IMG/VR virus record: IMGVR_UViG_2773857672_000001
Location: 1-34,928 of that record
Strand: one strand, 5' to 3'
Length of the DNA stretch: 34,928 nt
Origin: a virus
Positions within the stretch are counted from its first letter, which is position 1. Every line of letters starts with the position of its first letter. The notes beneath the pieces were generated by a model, which ran no database searches, was not told the DNA's origin, and was given only the letters and a program-made list of their open reading frames with translations. The position numbers and the translations under genes are program-made. Shown here one piece after another: positions 3,543 through 26,863 of the stretch.

Positions 3543-5353
3543 CAGTAGATCTCCATGACGCCGGTATTGCGGGCGGTCTGCCCTTCCAGCGGCTCGTTGT
3601 GCAGGGCATGAAAGAGGGCCCACGCGAGATCCGCGTGGCCGGTGGTGTCGTTGCGTCCGGCCGTGTAGGTGAACTGGCGGCCGCTGGCGGTGGTGGTCTT
3701 GCGAATGGCCATCAGCGACTGGGCGACGTCGGTCCAGCCGGCGTCAAATTCGAGCCGGCCGTTCTTGATTACGTCGTAGGCCTTGAGCACCAGGCGCGTC
3801 TTGACCTCGGGCGAGTAGCTGAAGGTGGTCAGGTTGGGAAAGAACTGGCGCACCAGCTGGGCCACGCCGCTGCCCATGCCGGTGACATCGATGCCGATAT
3901 AGGTCACCCAGTAGCGCTGGCAAACCTGGCGGATCGCCTCGGCCTGGGCGGCGAAGTCCATCCCGCGGAACTGGTGGCGCTCGAGCACGCGAAACTTGCC
4001 GCCCGGTACCAGGGGCGGTGCGACCACCACCAGGCCGGCGGTGTCGCCGGTCTCGGCGGGGTCATAGCCGACCCAGACCGGGCGCTCACCCAGCGGCCGG
4101 GCGGCGAAAGGTTTGTAGTCCTCGGCCCACTCGACCCAGCTGTCCACCATGCAGGGCTGCAGCATGGCGAGCGGGAAGATGCTCGCGCCGTCGTCGACGA
4201 ACTGGCACATGAGCAGGTTCTGGAAGGCCTCGGCCGAGTACTCGAGCTTGAGCTCCTCCAGGTCGAACAGGTCGCAGCCGCGGGACTCAGCGTCCAGGAT
4301 GGTGACGATCTGCCGCCAGATCCGGTCCTCGCAGAGCCGGCCCTCCTGCAGAGCCTCATGGGAGACGTCCAGCTTGAGGTGCTGGGCGACCGGCTTGCCC
4401 TTGTTGAAGCGCTCGCCGGTCCAGAAGGTGTAGGCCTCATGGGCCATGGAGCTGGGCGTCGAGAAGTAGGTCCGGCGGTATTGCTTCTGCATGGCCATGC
4501 CGCTGGCCACCTTGTTCAGCTCCTCGAAGCGGAAGGTCCAGAAGAATTCGTCGAAGTAGAAGTTGCCGTGGTAGCCCTGGGCGGTGCGGGCATTGGTGCC
4601 CAGGAAGTGCAGCTCGGCGCCGTTGGCGAGGACGATCGGATCCCCGGTCACATCGACGCCACAGACCTCCCGGGCGAAGGCCTGGATATACGCCTTGAAG
4701 ATATGCGCCTGGTTCTTGCTGGCCGACAGGAAAATCTGGTTGCGCCCGGTGATCAGCGCATCCAGGAAGGCCTCGCGAGCAAAGTAGTAGGTGGCGCCGA
4801 TCTGCCGGCTCTTGAGGATCGCCCGGGTCCGCTGCTGGCCGGCCCGGTACCAGTCGAGCTGGTAGCCGAAGCACTGGTCGCGGAAGGCGCTCTCAAGGGC
4901 CTCGATCTGCTCCTCGGTGAACTCGTTGCGTGCGGCCTTCTTCTTGGGTCCGGCATTGCGGTTGTCCAGCTTGGGATTGAGCTCGGCCTCGGTACCGCCG
5001 CCCTGGAAGCGCTGGATCCGCGCCTGGCGCTCCAGCTGGCGATGGAGCAGATCGATCTCCTTGAAGTCGCTGCCGGTCTTGCCGTCCTTGAGGATCAGCT
5101 GCACCAGGCGCGCCTCGAGGGCGCCGCCGATCCGCTCCACGTTGTCGGCCCGGTCCCATTCGTCCCTGGCCTTCCAGCTATGGACGGTCTTTTCCTTCTC
5201 CTCGATCGCCTCGGCGATCTCCGTCACCCGCCAGCCCATCCAATACAGATGCTTGGCGCGCCGACGCACGTCCATCAGCAGGTCAGTGGACGGGGCGGCC
5301 GCCGGCGTTTCGGCCGGGCTTGGCAGGGGCGAGGAATCGGATAGGCTTTTCAT
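3542..5353 (-). CDS. P: Terminase large (ATPase) subunit (P2 gpP homologue)
   Basis: 603 aa. ILKSRQIGATYYFAREA matches the remembered gpP Walker-like segment. Divergent from the scaffold gene as in P2. Confidence 0.9.
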   Translation of the reverse strand: MKSLSDSSPLPSPAETPAAAPSTDLLMDVRRRAKHLYWMGWRVTEIAEAIEEKEKTVHSWKARDEWDRADNVERIGGALEARLVQLILKDGKTGSDFKEIDLLHRQLERQARIQRFQGGGTEAELNPKLDNRNAGPKKKAARNEFTEEQIEALESAFRDQCFGYQLDWYRAGQQRTRAILKSRQIGATYYFAREAFLDALITGRNQIFLSASKNQAHIFKAYIQAFAREVCGVDVTGDPIVLANGAELHFLGTNARTAQGYHGNFYFDEFFWTFRFEELNKVASGMAMQKQYRRTYFSTPSSMAHEAYTFWTGERFNKGKPVAQHLKLDVSHEALQEGRLCEDRIWRQIVTILDAESRGCDLFDLEELKLEYSAEAFQNLLMCQFVDDGASIFPLAMLQPCMVDSWVEWAEDYKPFAARPLGERPVWVGYDPAETGDTAGLVVVAPPLVPGGKFRVLERHQFRGMDFAAQAEAIRQVCQRYWVTYIGIDVTGMGSGVAQLVRQFFPNLTTFSYSPEVKTRLVLKAYDVIKNGRLEFDAGWTDVAQSLMAIRKTTTASGRQFTYTAGRNDTTGHADLAWALFHALHNEPLEGQTARNTGVMEIY

Positions 5354-5400: not shown

Positions 5401-5419
5401 TGTACCGCGCGCGCCTACA
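5401..5419. promoter_or_regulatory. Late-promoter activator dyad TGTA-N11-TACA in the P/O divergent region
   Basis: TGTACCGCGCGCGCCTACA. The same dyad type occurs upstream of V and FI. A (CG)5 tract lies 20 nt downstream (5440-5449). Confidence 0.55.
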
Positions 5420-10673: not shown

Positions 10674-10773
10674 CGGCGAGCTCCTGGACGATAGCGAGGC
10701 GCTGGAAGCGGCCTGGGCCGACTGCGCCGCCCAGGTCGATATGGTCTATGACGCCCAGCAGGCCCACCCATGA
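10516..10773 (+). CDS. o-spanin (Rz1/LysC-like lipoprotein), overlapping the i-spanin in another frame
   Basis: MKTLNSGRGLASLCLLLLAGC has a lipobox (LLAGC) and is Pro-rich after the Cys. SD GGAG at 10505-10508. Overlaps the 3' end of 10239-10673. Confidence 0.75.
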   Translation: MKTLNSGRGLASLCLLLLAGCANGPSSPAPRLTVNGCPVVTRCQLPSTAPRNNGELLDDSEALEAAWADCAAQVDMVYDAQQAHP

Positions 10774-11300
10774 ACAAGCCCGAGAGCCTGCGCGCTCACC
10801 TGCTCACCGCCGTGCCGGAGCTGCGCCACAGCCCTGACCGGTTGCTGGTCTTCATCGACAAGGGCAAGTTGCGCTGCACCGCCGCGGCCAGCCTGTCCTG
10901 GGAGTACGGCTACGAGTTGCAGATCATCCTCACCGACTTCGCCGGCCACCCGGACGCCGTGATGCTGCCGCTGCTGGCCTGGGTCCGGACGAACCAGTCC
11001 GAGCTGCTGGCCAACCTGGACAAGTCCGCCCAGGGGATCGGCTTCGAGGCCGACATCCTGGACAATTCCAAGGTGGATCTGGCGATCACCCTCCCGCTCA
11101 CCGAGCGAGTGATCGTGAAACGCCAGCCGGACGACACCTACCAGCTGAGCCACGTGCCCGAGTCCCAATACACCGAGTACCAGGAGCCGGCCACCTGGCA
11201 GGTCTTCGCCGGCGACGATCTGCTGGCCGAATGGCAATCCGTATCCGCGGGCGACGCCCTCGCCCTGGAAACACCGCACCCAGGCCGCAGCCGTGGCTGA
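10770..11300 (+). CDS. R: Tail completion protein (P2 gpR homologue)
   Basis: Synteny after the lysis genes, 176 aa, ATGA coupling. Confidence 0.75.
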   Translation: MNKPESLRAHLLTAVPELRHSPDRLLVFIDKGKLRCTAAASLSWEYGYELQIILTDFAGHPDAVMLPLLAWVRTNQSELLANLDKSAQGIGFEADILDNSKVDLAITLPLTERVIVKRQPDDTYQLSHVPESQYTEYQEPATWQVFAGDDLLAEWQSVSAGDALALETPHPGRSRG

Positions 11301-11742
11301 CCTCGAGGCGCTGGAGACTTGGCTCTCGCCGCTGCTACAGAAGCTCGACGGTCGCGGCCGGGCCCAACTGGCCCGCAAGGCAGCTCAGCAGCTGCGCCGC
11401 GGTCAGCAGCAGCGGATCCGCGCCCAGGTGAACCCGGATGGCTCACCGTTCGAGGCGCGCAAGCCGCGGGATCTGCGTGGCAAGAAGGGACGGATCAAGC
11501 GGCGCATGTTCGAGAAGCTAAAGATGGCGCGCTACCTCAAGGCTAAGGGCACGCCGCAACAGGCGGTGATCGGCTTCGCCGGCCGCGTCTCCCGCATCGC
11601 CCGCGTCCACCAGTACGGCCTGAAAGACCGCGCCGAACGCGGAGCCCCCGAGGTCCGCTACCCCCGCCGCGAGCTGATCGGCCTTACTGAAAACGATTTG
11701 AAACTGCTGAGAGATGATCTGCTAGATGGATTGATCTCTTGA
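11293..11742 (+). CDS. S: Virion morphogenesis / tail completion protein (P2 gpS homologue)
   Basis: GTG start overlapping the end of gpR. Typical N-terminus LE.L..WL.PL and NPDGSPF. The last ~17 codons lie in AT-rich DNA. Confidence 0.78.
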   Translation: MADLEALETWLSPLLQKLDGRGRAQLARKAAQQLRRGQQQRIRAQVNPDGSPFEARKPRDLRGKKGRIKRRMFEKLKMARYLKAKGTPQQAVIGFAGRVSRIARVHQYGLKDRAERGAPEVRYPRRELIGLTENDLKLLRDDLLDGLIS

Positions 11743-12480
11743 GTACAACTCGTCAGGAGGTGTCAGCACCTTCCTGACGTATTGCCCATCTCCATCAAGA
11801 AACTTAGAAAGCCGGGCAGCTTCCACTAACTTTTTACCCGTTGGAGTTATAGCAACAATGCCCTCATATGTTCCTCTACCCACCAACAGAGACATTCCGC
11901 GTAGCTCGCCAATCTGCACAGCTATAACTCGGTCTCTCTCTATTATGTGGCGGAGATCATTGTCCCGCCAAACCTCGCCAAGCTCATCAAACGCTGCAAG
12001 AATCAGGAGATGCCGATAGGTAAGCCTGTCAATGCAAGATAGCATCCAAGACGCATCATCTGCGGCTATTGAGGTGTCAAAGGCTACAGACGCAAGAAGC
12101 TCACCTAACACCAGGACCTTTTGCTCTTCATATTGAAGCTTCGCTTTAGTAAGCACGCCATCAAGTATTGTTTGGGCTTTAGGTATTGACCCAGTCGGCG
12201 TCCGGAAGAAATCATCGTCCCTTAGCTCCTCGCCACTCGCGATTCTTTCTTTTATTCGCGCTGCACCTACCGCTACCGCACTAATACTTCTGACTTCTTC
12301 TCGGTTTGACATCGTCCGCTGCACGAAATCGACCAACGCCTGAGTTATAGCGACCCCAGCCTGAGCCAAAACACCTCCGCTCACATCTCCAACCGCTGTG
12401 GCAAGCATCGGCCCTGCTCCAGCGCCGGCAAGTTCGGCGCCACGCCTTATGATTTCTGGCAGTTTGCTCTTCGCATCCAT
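11722..12480 (-). CDS. Hypothetical 252-aa protein, antisense low-GC moron at the S/V junction
   Basis: ATG at 12480 with SD GAGGAA. N-terminal Gly/Ala-rich hydrophobic segment (GAELAGAGAGPMLATAVGDVSGGVLAQAGVAIT). C-terminal part resembles a winged helix (LTYRHLLILAAF...IGELRGMSLLVGRG..IVAITPTGKKLVE). The 3' end overlaps gpS by 21 bp. Confidence 0.7.
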   Translation of the reverse strand: MDAKSKLPEIIRRGAELAGAGAGPMLATAVGDVSGGVLAQAGVAITQALVDFVQRTMSNREEVRSISAVAVGAARIKERIASGEELRDDDFFRTPTGSIPKAQTILDGVLTKAKLQYEEQKVLVLGELLASVAFDTSIAADDASWMLSCIDRLTYRHLLILAAFDELGEVWRDNDLRHIIERDRVIAVQIGELRGMSLLVGRGTYEGIVAITPTGKKLVEAARLSKFLDGDGQYVRKVLTPPDELYSRDQSI

Positions 12481-12512
12481 GACTTTTCCTCTGGTTAGCT
12501 GGCACACACATT

Positions 12513-12531
12513 TGTAGCAGGCCTAGCTACA
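12513..12531. promoter_or_regulatory. Late-promoter dyad upstream of gpV (TTGTAGC-N7-GCTACAA)
   Basis: TGTAGCAGGCCTAGCTACA, with (CG)5 at 12551-12560. The dyad centre is 57 nt upstream of the V ATG. Confidence 0.6.
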
Positions 12532-12578
12532 ACTCTAGCTGGCTGCACCACGCGCGCGCGGTCGCCATTCTCCGCGGC

Positions 12579-13136
12579 ATGACCGATATCGCCGCCCTCT
12601 CCCGCCTCATCGAGAACCTGATCCGCCTCGGCACCATTGCCGAGGTCGACCATGGCAGTCTCCCAGACAAGCGCCCTGCCCGCGTTCGGGTTCAGAGCGG
12701 CGCCTTGCTGACCGGCTGGCTGCCCTGGACCGCCCTGCGCGCCGGCACCACGCGCGACTGGGATCCGCCCACCGTGGGCGAGCAGGTCCTGGTCCTGAGC
12801 CCCAGCGGCCAGACCGCCCAGGGCATCGCCATCGGCGGCCTGTTCAGCGCCCTCATTCCTGCCAACGGCGATCGCGCCGGCCTGCACCGCCGCACCTACC
12901 CGGACGGCGCCGTCGTCGAGTACGACAGCGAAGCCCACCAGCTGCTGGCCACCCTGCCCGCCGGCGGCCGGGTCGAAATCGTCGCCCCGGGCGGTTTTAA
13001 GCTGCAGGGCGACGTGGACATAGACGGCCTGGTGACCGTGACCCGCGACGTCGTCGCCGCCGGCATCAGCCTGGTTAAGCACCCGCACGGGGGCGTCCAG
13101 GTTGGCAACGCCCAGACCGGAGCGCCCACACCATGA
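12579..13136 (+). CDS. V: Baseplate assembly protein / spike (P2 gpV homologue)
   Basis: N-terminus L..L.NLIR.GTI.EVD and RVRVQSG..LT.WLPW parallel P2 gpV. Confidence 0.88.
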   Translation: MTDIAALSRLIENLIRLGTIAEVDHGSLPDKRPARVRVQSGALLTGWLPWTALRAGTTRDWDPPTVGEQVLVLSPSGQTAQGIAIGGLFSALIPANGDRAGLHRRTYPDGAVVEYDSEAHQLLATLPAGGRVEIVAPGGFKLQGDVDIDGLVTVTRDVVAAGISLVKHPHGGVQVGNAQTGAPTP

Positions 13137-17963: not shown

Positions 17964-17984
17964 TGTAGCGGGCGCCGCTACAAC
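17964..17984. promoter_or_regulatory. Late-promoter dyad upstream of the sheath gene (TTGTAGC-N7-GCTACAA)
   Basis: TTGTAGCGGGCGCCGCTACAA, with (CG)5 at 18001-18010. The half-sites are identical to the V promoter dyad. Confidence 0.6.
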
Positions 17985-23562: not shown

Positions 23563-24006
23563 ATGATGATGGCCCTCGGCAATTTCATATTCAGCCTCTA
23601 CACCCTCGCCTACCAGGAGCTCCAGCGGCAGACCGACTACCGCCACGCCAGCAGCTCCCGCGTGGGCGCCGCGCCAGCGCGCCAGTTCCTGGGCAAGGGT
23701 GACGACAGCATCACCCTGCCCGGCTGGCTTGCGCCGGAGCTCGCGGGGACGCCCAGCAGCCTGGACGTGCTGCGCTACATGGCCGGTACCGGCGGCGCCT
23801 GGCCGCTGATCGAGGGCAGCGGGCGGATCTACGGGCTCTGGGTCATCGAGAGCATCACCGAGACCAAGACGCTCTTCTTCCAAGACGGTACCCCGCGCCG
23901 CATCGAGTTCAGCATCGCCCTCAAGCGCGTTGACGACGACACCGGCCGCGAGCTGCTCGGCGTCGGCATTGCCGGCATGGGTACCGTGCTGAGGAAGCTG
24001 CTGTGA
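23563..24006 (+). CDS. U: Tail protein U
   Basis: 147 aa. The MALGNF.F start and GKGDDSITL.G motif are typical of gpU. Confidence 0.82.
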   Translation: MMMALGNFIFSLYTLAYQELQRQTDYRHASSSRVGAAPARQFLGKGDDSITLPGWLAPELAGTPSSLDVLRYMAGTGGAWPLIEGSGRIYGLWVIESITETKTLFFQDGTPRRIEFSIALKRVDDDTGRELLGVGIAGMGTVLRKLL

Positions 24007-25277
24007 TCCAGGAGCTGCTCGACACCGCTACCGGCCAGCTGCGCACCCTCGGCCGCGACCTGGTCCAGGGCGCCGCCTATGCCCAGGCGCGCTACCAGAT
24101 CCTGGTCGACGGCAAGGACATCAGCGCCCTCATCACGCCGCGGCTGATCAGCCTGGATCTGACGGACAACCGCGGCCTCGAGGCCGATCAGTTGAGCCTG
24201 GTGCTGTCTGACCACGACGGCCTGCTGGCCATCCCACCCCGGGGCGCCAAGATCCGCCTCTGGCTGGGCTGGTCCACCACCGGCCTGATCGACAAAGGCA
24301 GCTACATCGTCGACGAGACCGAGCACAGCGGCGCGCCTGATGTCCTGAGCATCCGCGCCCGTAGCGCCGACCTGCGCAAGGGTCTCAAGACCAAACGGGA
24401 CCAGAGCTACAGCGCCACCACCCTCGGCGCCGTGCTGCGCGGTCTGGCCGCGCGCCAGGGACTCACCCCGCTCATCGCGCCCGCCCTCGAGGCGCAGCAG
24501 GTCCTGCAGCTGGACCAGACCGGCGAATCAGATGCCAACCTGCTGACCCGTCTGGGCGAAGACTATGACGCGGTGGCCACTGTGAAAGCCGGGCGGCTAC
24601 TGTTCCTCCCAGCCGGCGGCGGCAAGGCGGTCAGCGGCGCCGATCTGGGCCACGTCACCCTCACCCGCCAGGACGGCGACCAGCACAGCTACCTGCAGGC
24701 CGATCGCGAGAGCTACGATGCCGTGCGGGCCTTCTATTACGACGTCAACAGCGCCAAGAAGCAGGAGGCTATCGCCGGCGGTGGCGAGAACGTGAAGGAC
24801 CTGCGCCACACCTACGCTGACCAGCTCTCCGCCCTGCGCGCCGCCCGGGCCGAGTGGAACCGCCTGCAGCGCGGTACCGCTACCCTCACCTACCAGCTAG
24901 CCCTGGGCCGCCCGGAGCTCATGCCCGAGCTCACCTACACCCTGCAGGGCGTGAAGGCCGAGATCGACGCCATCATCTGGTACGGGGGGAACGTGCAGCA
25001 CAGCCTCACCGCGGACGGCGGCTACACCACGCGCCTCGAGCTGGAAGCCAAGCTGCCGGAAGACCTGGTCGCCGACCTGGTCGACGAGATCCAGGGCGAC
25101 TTCACCGGCATCATTGCCTACTACCGCGACGCCAAGACTGGCAAGGAGCACACCCTCACCGAGGGTGACCAGAGCAAGCCGCGGCGGTTGCGGCATCTGT
25201 ACGCCACCAAGGCCACGGCGAAGCGGGCGGTGGAGCGGGAATGGAAGAAGCTACAGGCTACTAATGCTCAGGCCTGA
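24003..25277 (+). CDS. D: Late control / tail protein D
   Basis: 424 aa, the last gene of the F operon, with gpD-family length and context. Confidence 0.85.
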   Translation: MIQELLDTATGQLRTLGRDLVQGAAYAQARYQILVDGKDISALITPRLISLDLTDNRGLEADQLSLVLSDHDGLLAIPPRGAKIRLWLGWSTTGLIDKGSYIVDETEHSGAPDVLSIRARSADLRKGLKTKRDQSYSATTLGAVLRGLAARQGLTPLIAPALEAQQVLQLDQTGESDANLLTRLGEDYDAVATVKAGRLLFLPAGGGKAVSGADLGHVTLTRQDGDQHSYLQADRESYDAVRAFYYDVNSAKKQEAIAGGGENVKDLRHTYADQLSALRAARAEWNRLQRGTATLTYQLALGRPELMPELTYTLQGVKAEIDAIIWYGGNVQHSLTADGGYTTRLELEAKLPEDLVADLVDEIQGDFTGIIAYYRDAKTGKEHTLTEGDQSKPRRLRHLYATKATAKRAVEREWKKLQATNAQA

Positions 25278-25477
25278 TCAATTTGGCGGTTCGGCCCGGG
25301 CCCACCTCTCGGGCCTGGAGCCGAGCGTAGGACGTCGGCGAAGCGCAAGATGCTGGACTGCTCTCGCTCCTGCAGGGACCGAAAGCTATCTAGAAGCTGC
25401 TTTTCGCGGCCGCTGACCACCATAAGACTACCTGAACCTCGACTCACCATAGCGCCCTGCCAGACCATCTGCTCCAT
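25268..25477 (-). CDS. 69-aa hypothetical protein under an SOS box (candidate Tum-like antirepressor)
   Basis: ATG at 25477 preceded by GGGAGGG 8 nt upstream. A LexA-box lies 21-36 nt upstream. Its 3' end converges on and overlaps gpD by 10 nt. Confidence 0.5.
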   Translation of the reverse strand: MEQMVWQGAMVSRGSGSLMVVSGREKQLLDSFRSLQEREQSSILRFADVLRSAPGPRGGPGPNRQIDQA

Positions 25478-25497
25478 CCAATAGACCCTCCCAATTG

Positions 25498-25513
25498 CTG
25501 TATGTGCATACAG
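25498..25513. promoter_or_regulatory. LexA (SOS) box CTGTATGTGCATACAG
   Basis: Fits CTGT-N8-ACAG with conserved TAT/ATA flanks. On the minus strand it reads TACTGTATGCACATACAGCA. An adjacent 6-2-6 inverted repeat GTGATC-CC-GATCAC lies at 25520-25533. Confidence 0.7.
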
Positions 25514-25594
25514 TACATTGTGATCCCGATCACGCCAATGGCGAAAGCCGAACGGTTAGCTATGTCCGGTGCGGCGGGTGATCTGGCTGGCCTA

Positions 25595-25617
25595 GATGGC
25601 GCATGAGCAGCGCCATC
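25595..25617 (-). terminator. GC-rich stem-loop downstream of the secreted-protein gene (possible terminator, no U-tract)
   Basis: GATGGCGC / GCGCCATC 8-bp stem with a 7-nt loop. Confidence 0.3.
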
Positions 25618-25643
25618 CGTCTAGCGACCAACGGTACTAACGG

Positions 25644-26204
25644 TCATTTAGAGCTTAGGCTATCAACAAGCTTGTTCAGTTGCGGCTCTTTGTAATAAAC
25701 ATTTTCAAAACTCTTCGACCAGTGATCTAACTGGATACTTCCAGATTTTTCTGGCGAAGTAAGAGCGGAAAAGGAATCTACGGAAATATGTCCATTGATA
25801 ACCGACAGTGCTTTTTCGCGAGTCGCTTTAACCTCAACCTTCGGCGACTTCAGATAAACAACCTCTGACTTACCTGGCGTAAACTGAAGCGGAAACGCCG
25901 TTACGGTTATGCTATTTGCATTCGTATGAATGAAGGTACGATATACCGCGTACACCGCCGCACGCTTAACTTCATAGGCAGCATTATCCGCTGGCTCGTT
26001 CGGGAAGACCTTCGGCGAGATCTGCACGGTGAGCGGATCCTCCTTGAGCACACGGAACGTGCCGTTCTCCTCGGAGAAGTCGCCCAGATCCTCAATCATC
26101 TCTCTTACACCAGAGTATTGAATAGGCTCTAGATCATTTGCATAAGAAATTGACGCAAATAAAAAGAGCGCCGGAAGGGCAGCAACCTTTCCAACAGATA
26201 TCAT
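25644..26204 (-). CDS. Secreted (Sec signal peptide) 186-aa protein co-transcribed with the repressor
   Basis: MISVGKVAALPALFLFASISYA|ND signal peptide with no lipobox Cys. SD AAGGA. Only 15 nt separate it from the repressor stop. Strongly AT-rich relative to the phage. Confidence 0.7.
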   Translation of the reverse strand: MISVGKVAALPALFLFASISYANDLEPIQYSGVREMIEDLGDFSEENGTFRVLKEDPLTVQISPKVFPNEPADNAAYEVKRAAVYAVYRTFIHTNANSITVTAFPLQFTPGKSEVVYLKSPKVEVKATREKALSVINGHISVDSFSALTSPEKSGSIQLDHWSKSFENVYYKEPQLNKLVDSLSSK

Positions 26205-26219
26205 AACTATCCTTAATGT

Positions 26220-26555
26220 TTATTCAGAAGCTTGCGAAAGAGCCCAAACGAGACGTTCAATAGATGCCCGATCAACTTCGGACATTTTACGCATTGCCTG
26301 TATGACTTTTGTTTCCGAAGAGTTGAGGTCAGACACTGTTTGCGGCTTTCGCTCGCCATACAGTAGATACCAGATATCTACGCCAATCTTTTCGATAGCG
26401 GCCAAATACGCAACGTCGGGGCTGCGCTCATCCTTCTCGTAAAACCATTGAGTGTTTTTGGCAACACCACCCAATGCGGCGAAGTCGGTCTGGTTGTATC
26501 CCAACCGCTTTCGCTCCTCTTGGAGCCGAGACCCAATTCCCACTTTTGTCACCAT
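26220..26555 (-). CDS. Immunity repressor, XRE/Cro-CI-type HTH, no peptidase domain
   Basis: IGSRLQEERKRLGYNQTDFAALGGVAKNTQWFYEKDERSP is a classic HTH_3 pattern. 111 aa from the ATG at 26555. Divergent from the Ner/Cro-like gene. Confidence 0.75.
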   Translation of the reverse strand: MVTKVGIGSRLQEERKRLGYNQTDFAALGGVAKNTQWFYEKDERSPDVAYLAAIEKIGVDIWYLLYGERKPQTVSDLNSSETKVIQAMRKMSEVDRASIERLVWALSQASE

Positions 26556-26601
26556 CCTGGACTTGACTTTACCATCTGAGTGGTAAAGACTCCGCCTTGT
26601 G

Positions 26602-26633
26602 TCACACGAAACCACACTAAATCACACGAAACC
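26602..26633. promoter_or_regulatory. Two perfect 12-bp direct repeats TCACACGAAACC spaced 20 bp apart (candidate operators)
   Basis: Copies at 26602-26613 and 26622-26633, in the 83-bp gap between the repressor and Cro-like genes. Confidence 0.55.
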
Positions 26634-26638
26634 GAACT

Positions 26639-26863
26639 ATGCCGAACGGATACCCAACTGAGCAAGCTTGTGCCGCTGCGCGCGACCGCCTTAAGCGCCT
26701 TGGGTTGAGTGCCAAGGACTGGGCGCAACAGAACGGACTGACCCCCAGCACTGTTTACGCAGTGCTGAATGGCCAGAAAAAATGCCTTCGCGGTGAGTCC
26801 CACAAAGCGGCAGTGCTGCTGGGGATGAAAGAGGGTGAAACTTCAGCCGTGGCGGAACAGTAA
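26639..26863 (+). CDS. Ner/Cro-like small DNA-binding protein (Apl/Cox functional position)
   Basis: 74 aa. LSAKDWAQQNGLTPSTVYAVLNG..KCLRGESHKAAVLLGM resembles the Ner/Nlp family HTH. First gene of the early operon. Confidence 0.6.
   Translation: MPNGYPTEQACAAARDRLKRLGLSAKDWAQQNGLTPSTVYAVLNGQKKCLRGESHKAAVLLGMKEGETSAVAEQ

Follow-up and report, generated by a model that had tools for sequence, protein, structure and literature searches.

A low-GC antisense cassette between the tail genes gpS and gpV of a P2-like phage encodes a candidate stand-alone defence protein of an unannotated family

What does a single low-GC gene that runs against the late operons do between two tail genes of a Pseudomonas P2-like prophage? 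The question is raised by a virus record of 34,928 nucleotides (IMG/VR record IMGVR_UViG_2773857672_000001, positions 1 to 34,928; this whole stretch is called the window below), in which a short cassette between gpS and gpV holds one antisense gene, termed the cargo gene, for a protein of 252 amino acids (aa). A preliminary description made from the sequence had regarded the gene as a candidate for lysogenic conversion or abortive infection. Its sequence-level account is correct in each checkable detail and its interpretation is partly supported: position, cargo nature and architecture are verified, and the evidence on function is circumstantial. The reading preferred here is that the cargo gene encodes a stand-alone phage-defence or exclusion protein expressed in the lysogen, to which sequence and context comparisons give a probability of roughly 0.45-0.5. 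The novelty lies in an unannotated protein family and in a protein core without a match among solved structures, as defence-type cargo in a P2-like hotspot was already known.

The cassette is set apart from its surroundings by composition and has defined borders. GC content falls from 0.65-0.71 in the late-region flanks to 0.47-0.51 across approximately 11690-12500 and then rises again, and third-position GC (GC3) is 0.47 in the cargo gene compared with 0.79-0.91 in gpR, gpS, gpV and gpW. Alignment with relatives that have an empty slot places the left border at approximately 11686, inside gpS at codon ~131-133 and ~17-19 codons before the gpS stop, and the right border is a conserved dyad, TTGTAGC-N7-GCTACAA, at 12512-12532. 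Both the GC profile and the alignment agree with the earlier statement that the drop starts within the final ~17 gpS codons and stops at the gpV dyad. The last ~17-19 gpS codons (~11686-11742) lie in low-GC recoded DNA and specify a peptide that is only loosely conserved. Such recoded gpS tails are seen by alignment in the window, in the Pseudomonas sp. HR1 prophage (L001) and in two relatives with other cargos (L013 and L019), and the cassette therefore carries its own gpS end. The cargo open reading frame (ORF) is the only long ORF of the low-GC interval, and the ORF map together with a GAGGA motif 6 nt from the ATG bears out the description of a single gene with a good Shine-Dalgarno sequence. 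Its stop codon (11722-11724) falls within gpS, which ends at 11742, giving the convergent 21-bp overlap that had been described. An in-frame GTG at 12507 would allow nine extra codons; every close homolog starts with MDAKSK at the ATG. No known RNAs were found in the cassette.

The S/V junction is a real hotspot with defence-rich cargo. With gpS as the query, 80 related P2-like contigs were collected from IMG/VR, and gpS and gpV could both be located in 76 of these. The slot is empty in 30 of the 76, where a GC-rich junction of 61-69 bp has the gpS stop codon within the left arm of the dyad TTGTAGC-N7-GCTACA(A), just 5′ of gpV. It is filled in the other 46 by inserts of 351-3,280 bp with a GC content of 0.37-0.60 against 0.58-0.69 in the flanks. 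A total of 63 ORFs with a length of 60 aa or more, forming 49 sequence clusters, were counted in the filled slots, with one single ORF of at least 100 aa in 34 loci and a main ORF antisense to the late genes in 33. When 43 representatives were scanned, PADLOC matches were obtained to PDC-S31 (three members), PDC-S20, PDC-S45, PD-T7-4, HEC-04, PDC-S15, PDC-S58, SIR2, PifA and ATPase-TOPRIM, and Pfam matches to ApeA_NTD1/HEPN_Apea, KAP_NTPase, DUF4145, DUF2971, FRG and Trypsin_2. This comparison across related prophages, which had been proposed as a check, reveals swapped low-GC cargo that includes known defence genes and strengthens the label of a single-gene defence or lysogenic-conversion candidate. 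None of the 63 ORFs is related to the 252-aa cargo protein, which is absent from all 76 relatives. The smallest recurrent cargo in the survey is a mini-cassette of ~350 bp with a conserved antisense ORF of 70-74 aa, present in the S/V slot of four contigs (L016, L017, L026 and L028, at about 4439-4663).

The empty and filled forms agree with the earlier view of the junction as a known cargo slot, as do the P2 record and a previous report that the orf30 region is one of three horizontal-transfer slots of P2-like phages (PMC3091744). The S/V slot resembles the defence hotspots of P2-like phages and P4 satellites (Rousset et al. 2022, PMC9122126; NAR 2026, PMC13586616) in being a fixed slot among core genes where low-GC, mostly unrelated cassettes are swapped on near-identical backbones. 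In those studies the hotspot characterised, and the one known in most detail (PMC9122126), is gpA/gpQ in enterobacterial P2, and a tail-gene hotspot is covered only collectively as 'downstream of GpL'. The slot described here is narrowed down to the S/V junction of Pseudomonas phiCTX-group phages, with a cargo that matches no known system. The hotspot concept is already known, and locating the slot at the S/V junction in this Pseudomonas group refines it. That new immune systems can be drawn from prophage hotspots is established, and a slot mapped to the base pair, with the final ~17 gpS codons replaced and the right end at the gpV promoter dyad, provides a precise handle for cargo mining.

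The cargo gene is found intact in the same slot in two sister prophages, namely the Pseudomonas sp. HR1 prophage (84% identity, with the 21-bp overlap kept) and a metagenomic sister phage (L007; 55% identity). Disruption or lack of conservation of the ORF in near-identical prophages, named beforehand as evidence against a cargo function, is not seen in either sister that has the gene. The ratio of nonsynonymous to synonymous substitution rates (dN/dS) relative to the HR1 allele is 0.11 overall and 0.16, 0.06 and 0.12 for the N-terminal, central and C-terminal domains, respectively, which indicates a functional gene under purifying selection in all of its domains. Compared with the metagenomic sister, gpW is 100% and gpV 95% identical against 55% for the cargo protein, with synonymous sites in the cargo gene saturated. 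The backbone itself is mosaic, as gpR and gpS are 91% and gpV and gpW 95-100% identical to the metagenomic sister, compared with 94-95% for gpR and gpS and 81-82% for gpV and gpW in the HR1 prophage. This contrast thus makes the S/V junction a backbone recombination breakpoint as well, and the cargo follows the gpS side, in keeping with a cassette that carries the end of gpS. The alleles are swapped as a cassette on a near-constant backbone, and the gene is a horizontally acquired, mobile single-gene cargo in the slot that corresponds to P2 orf30. The next relatives, which are 46-49% identical, lie outside gpS/gpV slots. As they sit in genomes of ~43-46% GC, one of them a Cellvibrio metagenome-assembled genome (L091), a lower-GC gammaproteobacterial donor is suggested. 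A separate observation concerns gpV, which has a dN/dS of 0.53-0.67 in the two comparisons involving the HR1 prophage, unusually high for a structural gene.

The cargo protein belongs to a large family that has escaped annotation. Searches of Pfam, PADLOC, PHROGs and NCBIfam gave only chance-level matches and none of the four libraries assigns it to a family, in line with its earlier listing as unrecognised. An indexed search returned 13 clusters, and an exhaustive phmmer search of 1.84 billion representatives returned 1,411 proteins at E ≤ 1e-3, 740 of them at E ≤ 1e-10; the family comprises 1,411 clusters at 50% identity. Most of the matching proteins are 250-290 aa long and align mainly over residues 1-170, and all 83 of 83 family-profile matches are labelled 'hypothetical protein' and carry no Pfam tag. 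The family spans at least six phyla, with named sources including Pseudomonas, Cellvibrio, Shewanella, Oceanicaulis, many Bacteroidota, Salinibacter, Planctomycetaceae, Poribacteria and Listeria. In 9 of 19 loci the GC content of the family gene is lower than that of the adjacent DNA by 5 points or more. A structural search of BFVD also picked up two unnamed viral proteins, A0A291AUV8 and A0A516M1T5 (229 and 221 aa), with a Foldseek probability of 0.96-0.98, E of ~0.07 and TM of 0.38-0.47 against the full-length model; judged from the models, these may be remote phage-borne relatives missed by sequence search.

Several homologs outside phages adjoin known defence systems, which further strengthens the candidate label. 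On a contig of ~43% GC (L004, 5833-7480), a 49%-identical homolog starts 2 bp after a gene for a 302-aa DUF4238-like protein, and both lie just downstream of complete GajA and GajB genes of a Gabija system. The DUF4238-like protein matches the PADLOC model DUF4238-Pers with an E of 3.6e-5 over its N-terminal part only, and the tight spacing suggests co-transcription with the homolog. Other homologs adjoin an SMC-type ATPase with LmuB-model matches together with DUF4145 and CHAT (L006), ApeA and an ABC-three-component (ABC-3C) system on the Shewanella plasmid pS19501, and McrBC (L101). Probable defence neighbours are a PLD protein with a DEAD/ResIII helicase (L005), NACHT and RES proteins (L010) and, on the Listeria plasmid pLIS4, an annotated HEPN protein with an AAA ATPase. 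Genes of mobile elements, namely a serine recombinase and IS110, are also found next to homologs. No conserved partner gene emerged from these loci, as 22 homolog neighbours lack mutual BLAST similarity. The DUF4238 gene was rejected as a partner, since a GGDEF gene takes its place upstream of the homolog in L091, the closest other locus. A conserved downstream partner in Bacteroidota was likewise rejected on the dissimilarity of the 22 neighbours. A HEPN partner, considered for the Shewanella and Listeria plasmids, was rejected because the 'HEPN' neighbour on one plasmid is unrelated to that on the other, and one of the two is an ApeA that stands alone. The dissimilar neighbours and the solitary place in the phage slot show that the protein needs no dedicated partner.

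An AlphaFold2 model of the full-length protein, built from an alignment of 136 sequences, has a pLDDT of 89.2 and a pTM of 0.86 and divides the chain into three domains. The glycine-zipper-like N-terminus proposed earlier is supported by six overlapping (G/A/S)xxx(G/A/S)xxx(G/A/S) motifs in residues 14-39. G14, G19, G23 and G42 are conserved, and the segment has a family-wide content of 47% glycine plus alanine and 7% charged residues. Curated zipper models are matched by some of the 136 relatives (Pfam Gly-zipper_Omp, PF13488, by 8; NCBIfam PdsO by 23; YiaD_Gzip_OmpA by 1), and the protein of the window itself falls below threshold for them. The family profile also matches residues 594-641 of the tape-measure protein 9ki1_g with an E of 0.0024. 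Repeated small-xxx-small motifs in a hairpin of ~37 residues are the feature shared with glycine-zipper segments such as those of Gly-zipper_Omp and YiaD/PdsO proteins, tape-measure proteins and the bacteriocin-like effectors of conflict systems (PMC11090510). The comparison is limited to the N-terminal ~40 residues, and the cargo protein differs in having no signal peptide, lipobox, OmpA or other partner domain.

The central helical domain is the most conserved part of the protein, with R55, R64, G83, R87, D89, F91, F92, E119 and K121 conserved in at least 90% of the 136 sequences, and reaches a pLDDT of 93.5 when modelled alone. No relative of this domain was found in the PDB by Foldseek (best E 1.7, probability 0.14). 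The C-terminal domain is predicted to form helices at residues 155-167, 173-182 and 184-195 followed by a β-hairpin, and this modelled topology together with weak MarR matches is consistent with the winged-helix-like C-terminal half described earlier. Foldseek retrieves MarR-family chains over ~100 residues, weakly (3fm5_B has a probability of 0.96 but an E of 0.31), and a profile search against solved structures matches MepR/MarR at an E of 0.04-0.1. The modelled α-α-α-β-hairpin topology and an LT..Q..L / L...GL. /.T..G..L pattern resemble those of MarR/MepR regulators over the C-terminal ~75-100 residues. The resemblance is weak (E 0.04-0.3), and the cargo protein differs from these regulators in lacking evident dimerisation helices, in its non-basic domain and in the fusion of that domain to a zipper and a novel core. 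Of the three domains, the winged helix has the highest dN relative to the HR1 allele and the lowest family-wide conservation. A Foldseek search with the full model is dominated by designed helical repeats, and sequence-profile searches of the PDB gave only the weak MarR and tape-measure matches.

The geometry of the locus bears on when the gene could be expressed. The exact dyad core TGTAGC-N7-GCTACA has only two copies in the window, one 5′ of gpV and one at 17964-17982, the latter expected to lie upstream of the sheath operon, and a copy with two mismatches (5401-5419) is found where the scaffold gene starts. This distribution fits a late-activator site, and all copies are considered candidate sites. 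The dyad spans the stretch 33-51 bp 5′ of the cargo ATG, and the divergent start codons of the cargo gene and gpV are 98 bp apart; therefore, any cargo promoter must overlap the candidate late-activator site. A scan found no terminator-like site on the plus strand between gpS and gpV. A strong stem-loop just past the gpS stop, inside the 3′ coding end of the cargo gene, has a z-score of -4.7, with 0 of 200 shuffled sequences folding as well, and is not called as a canonical terminator by the scan. The stem-loop might nevertheless block the upstream late-operon transcript or mark a place where that transcript is processed. With no plus-strand terminator between gpS and the cargo gene, late read-through would run antisense to the cargo gene, and silencing by late transcription, as suggested in the preliminary description, is geometrically plausible. 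The features of the locus are collected in Table 1.

Table 1. Features of the gpS/gpV cassette and its flanking genes in the window
Feature	Position	Strand	Basis or remarks
Cassette of low GC content (825 bp) with the cargo gene, gpS/gpV hotspot	11686..12510	no strand	GC and alignment with empty-slot and other-cargo relatives
Cargo gene, 252 aa, unannotated family	11722..12480	minus	ORF (ATG start), dN/dS 0.11, homologs, AlphaFold model
Shine-Dalgarno sequence GAGGA, 6 nt 5′ of the cargo ATG	12487..12491	minus	Read from sequence; kept in L001
Residues 14-50, Gly/Ala-rich glycine-zipper helical hairpin, putative membrane-active element	12331..12441	minus	
Residues 53-154, central helical domain, ordered loop of ~19 residues with G83-x3-R87-x-D89-x-F91-F92	12019..12324	minus	
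Residues 155-232, MarR-like winged helix-turn-helix	11785..12018	minus	
Strong stem-loop without U-tract, 9 nt past the gpS stop, inside the cargo 3′ coding end	11751..11779	plus	ΔG -24.4 kcal/mol
Dyad TTGTAGC-N7-GCTACAA, candidate Ogr-type late-activator site of the gpV promoter	12512..12532	no strand	Invariant in filled and empty relatives; P2 has an annotated activator-binding site at the matching position
gpR	10770..11300		Pfam E 2e-50
gpS, tail completion	11293..11742	plus	Pfam Phage_tail_S E 5e-37
gpV, baseplate spike; opens the downstream late operon	12579..13136	plus	Pfam Phage_base_V E 5e-15 and Apex motif

The parallel with P2 drawn in the preliminary description stands in terms of placement, as the P2 record has the nonessential Orf30 between S and V, antisense like the cargo gene and of similar size (261 aa compared with 252 aa). 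The Orf30 start is 14 bp from the annotated pV activator site and the cargo ATG is 33 bp from the dyad, and the spacing of the site is TGT-N13-ACA here and TGT-N11-ACA in the P2 pV site as read from the annotation. P2 has an annotated rho-independent terminator in the intergenic region after S, whereas here S and the cargo gene overlap by 21 bp and the hairpin occupies the equivalent place. Homology of the two proteins was rejected on an hhalign probability of 0.1%, a BLASTP E of 39 and a negative tblastn search of a phage collection that includes P2.

For the preferred reading of a defence protein that acts through superinfection exclusion or abortive infection, a mechanism can be proposed. 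The cargo protein would be made in the lysogen, with transcription running counter to the late genes and starting from a promoter that overlaps the dyad of the gpV late promoter. The core and the winged helix would keep it inactive, as a soluble or peripheral protein, and would sense a component of an incoming phage. Upon this trigger, the glycine zippers would self-associate in the inner membrane, with the outcome that the membrane potential is dissipated and the infection aborted, or that the DNA-entry channel of the incoming phage is disturbed. In the lytic cycle of the prophage itself, an activator bound at the dyad and antisense read-through from gpS could turn the cargo gene off. The specific membrane mechanism deserves about half the credence given to the defence role. 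A broader proposal, in which this is the first phage-borne member of a large stand-alone immunity family whose helical sensor or latch fold and winged helix control a zipper membrane effector, is put forward tentatively and would have to overcome somewhat unfavourable odds. Under this proposal the zipper, given its likeness to hydrophobic tape-measure segments, might serve as a decoy that joins the DNA-entry channel of the incoming phage and blocks it instead of only killing the cell.

In its proposed function the cargo protein comes closest to single-gene prophage Abi proteins, such as Abiα (EF2833; Pfam Abi_alpha/DUF4393, PF14337) of Enterococcus faecalis prophage 6, although by functional analogy only. 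Abiα likewise comes from a single prophage gene, is ~270 aa long and lacks any enzymatic domain that can be recognised (PMC6356687). Abiα is found on prophages and in resistance islands and causes abortive infection with premature lysis, possibly via the membrane or holin timing (PMC6356687). Homology to Abi_alpha is unsupported, with no Pfam match at E ≤ 1 for the cargo protein and none at E ≤ 0.01 in the 136 relatives, and PDB 3H35, cited as Abiα-like in the same study, is not among the top Foldseek matches of the cargo model. If the cargo protein is protective against phage, it would represent a new one-gene defence family and a tractable model for the silencing and triggering of a glycine-zipper effector, and Pseudomonas lysogens carrying it may resist therapeutic phages.

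A number of results weigh against the defence reading. With PADLOC-DB v2.0.0, the cargo protein matches only Csx20 at chance level (E 0.021) and the 136 relatives give only three weak LeoBC matches and one Cas9 match. The family was not found in 50,697 sequenced phages by tblastn with three divergent members, and a pattern-limited scan of IMG/VR gave no close relative; phage carriage is therefore exceptional. A simple consensus scan for sigma-70 promoters gave none 5′ of the cargo gene. The zipper has Kyte-Doolittle means over 19 residues of 1.2-1.4, under the classical transmembrane threshold, contains D32, and is the least confident part of the model (pLDDT 54-74). The winged helix is not basic and has a net charge of -1, so DNA binding is doubtful. 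Finally, there are only ~4 clear and three probable defence neighbourhoods among 16 non-phage contexts, and approximately half of the 16 are neutral, with neighbours such as ThiC, beta-lactamase and TonB-dependent receptors; a set of this size is too small for a formal score of association with defence.

The neutral half of these contexts, which lacks defence genes, also speaks for a membrane-associated lysogenic-conversion factor unrelated to defence that alters envelope physiology, stress tolerance or interbacterial competition, for example as a glycine-zipper toxin or through an immunity-like function. Such a role would be in line with the occurrence of glycine zippers in many envelope proteins, with matches of the relatives to PdsO, YiaD, Gly-zipper_Omp, DUF456 and DUF1269, and with the description of P2-like hotspots as mixed-purpose (bioRxiv 10.1101/2024.10.15.618418). 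It is nevertheless unlikely: recognisable defence genes are abundant in the slots of sister phages, several homologs directly adjoin defence systems, and an envelope protein would be at odds with a sequence that has neither a signal peptide nor a lipobox.

The position of the gene start 33 bp from the late-promoter dyad and the MarR-like fold and profile matches of residues 155-232 raise the possibility of a winged-helix transcription factor or DNA-binding regulator that tunes late genes of the prophage or genes of the host and uses its N-terminus only to oligomerise. This is improbable, as the non-basic winged helix is the least conserved domain and what the family conserves is the zipper and core. 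Homologs also turn up on chromosomes and plasmids in contexts that are unrelated to one another and have no target genes in common. Furthermore, all 76 relatives lack the gene yet share this dyad and the gpV promoter, so their regulation does not need it.

A counter-defence protein that helps the phage past host immunity is very improbable. Genes of this kind do gather in phage accessory hotspots, the slot being a variable one, and some anti-defence genes have been found in P2-like phages, but they are rare there, in 28 elements (PMC13586616), and the antisense, Orf30-like placement fits expression in the lysogen. The homologs are nearly all chromosomal or plasmid-borne in bacteria, several of them in defence islands, with none in the 50,697 phages.

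Least probable is a selfish or neutral hitch-hiker, either an addiction-type toxin or a gene without benefit kept by hotspot recombination, for which rapid cassette turnover and the lack of a partner or antitoxin gene could be cited against strong purifying selection in all domains and a family of 1,411 clusters in at least six phyla; its sub-case of a role in the virion or morphogenesis is excluded, since the gene is absent from all 76 relatives, whose tail modules are intact, and homology to a structural virion component, named beforehand as evidence against cargo, was not found in the form of any tail-protein match.

Two other regions of the window have a low GC content. The first, at 25400-26700 (GC 0.475-0.49), directly follows a gpD-like gene (24003-25277) and contains on the minus strand a gene for a 131-aa XRE-type helix-turn-helix protein that is repressor-like (26220-26615). 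The next gene downstream on this strand (25644-26204) codes for 186 aa that seem to start with a signal peptide, and its product may be another lysogenic-conversion cargo, transcribed together with the repressor-like gene. The second is at the left end, on the portal/terminase side (1-1800 and 1726-2450; GC 0.51-0.55), and includes a 183-aa ORF on the plus strand (964-1515) and an adjacent minus-strand ORF with a DPPY motif typical of N6-adenine DNA methyltransferases. This region may correspond to the gpA/gpQ (old/tin) hotspot.

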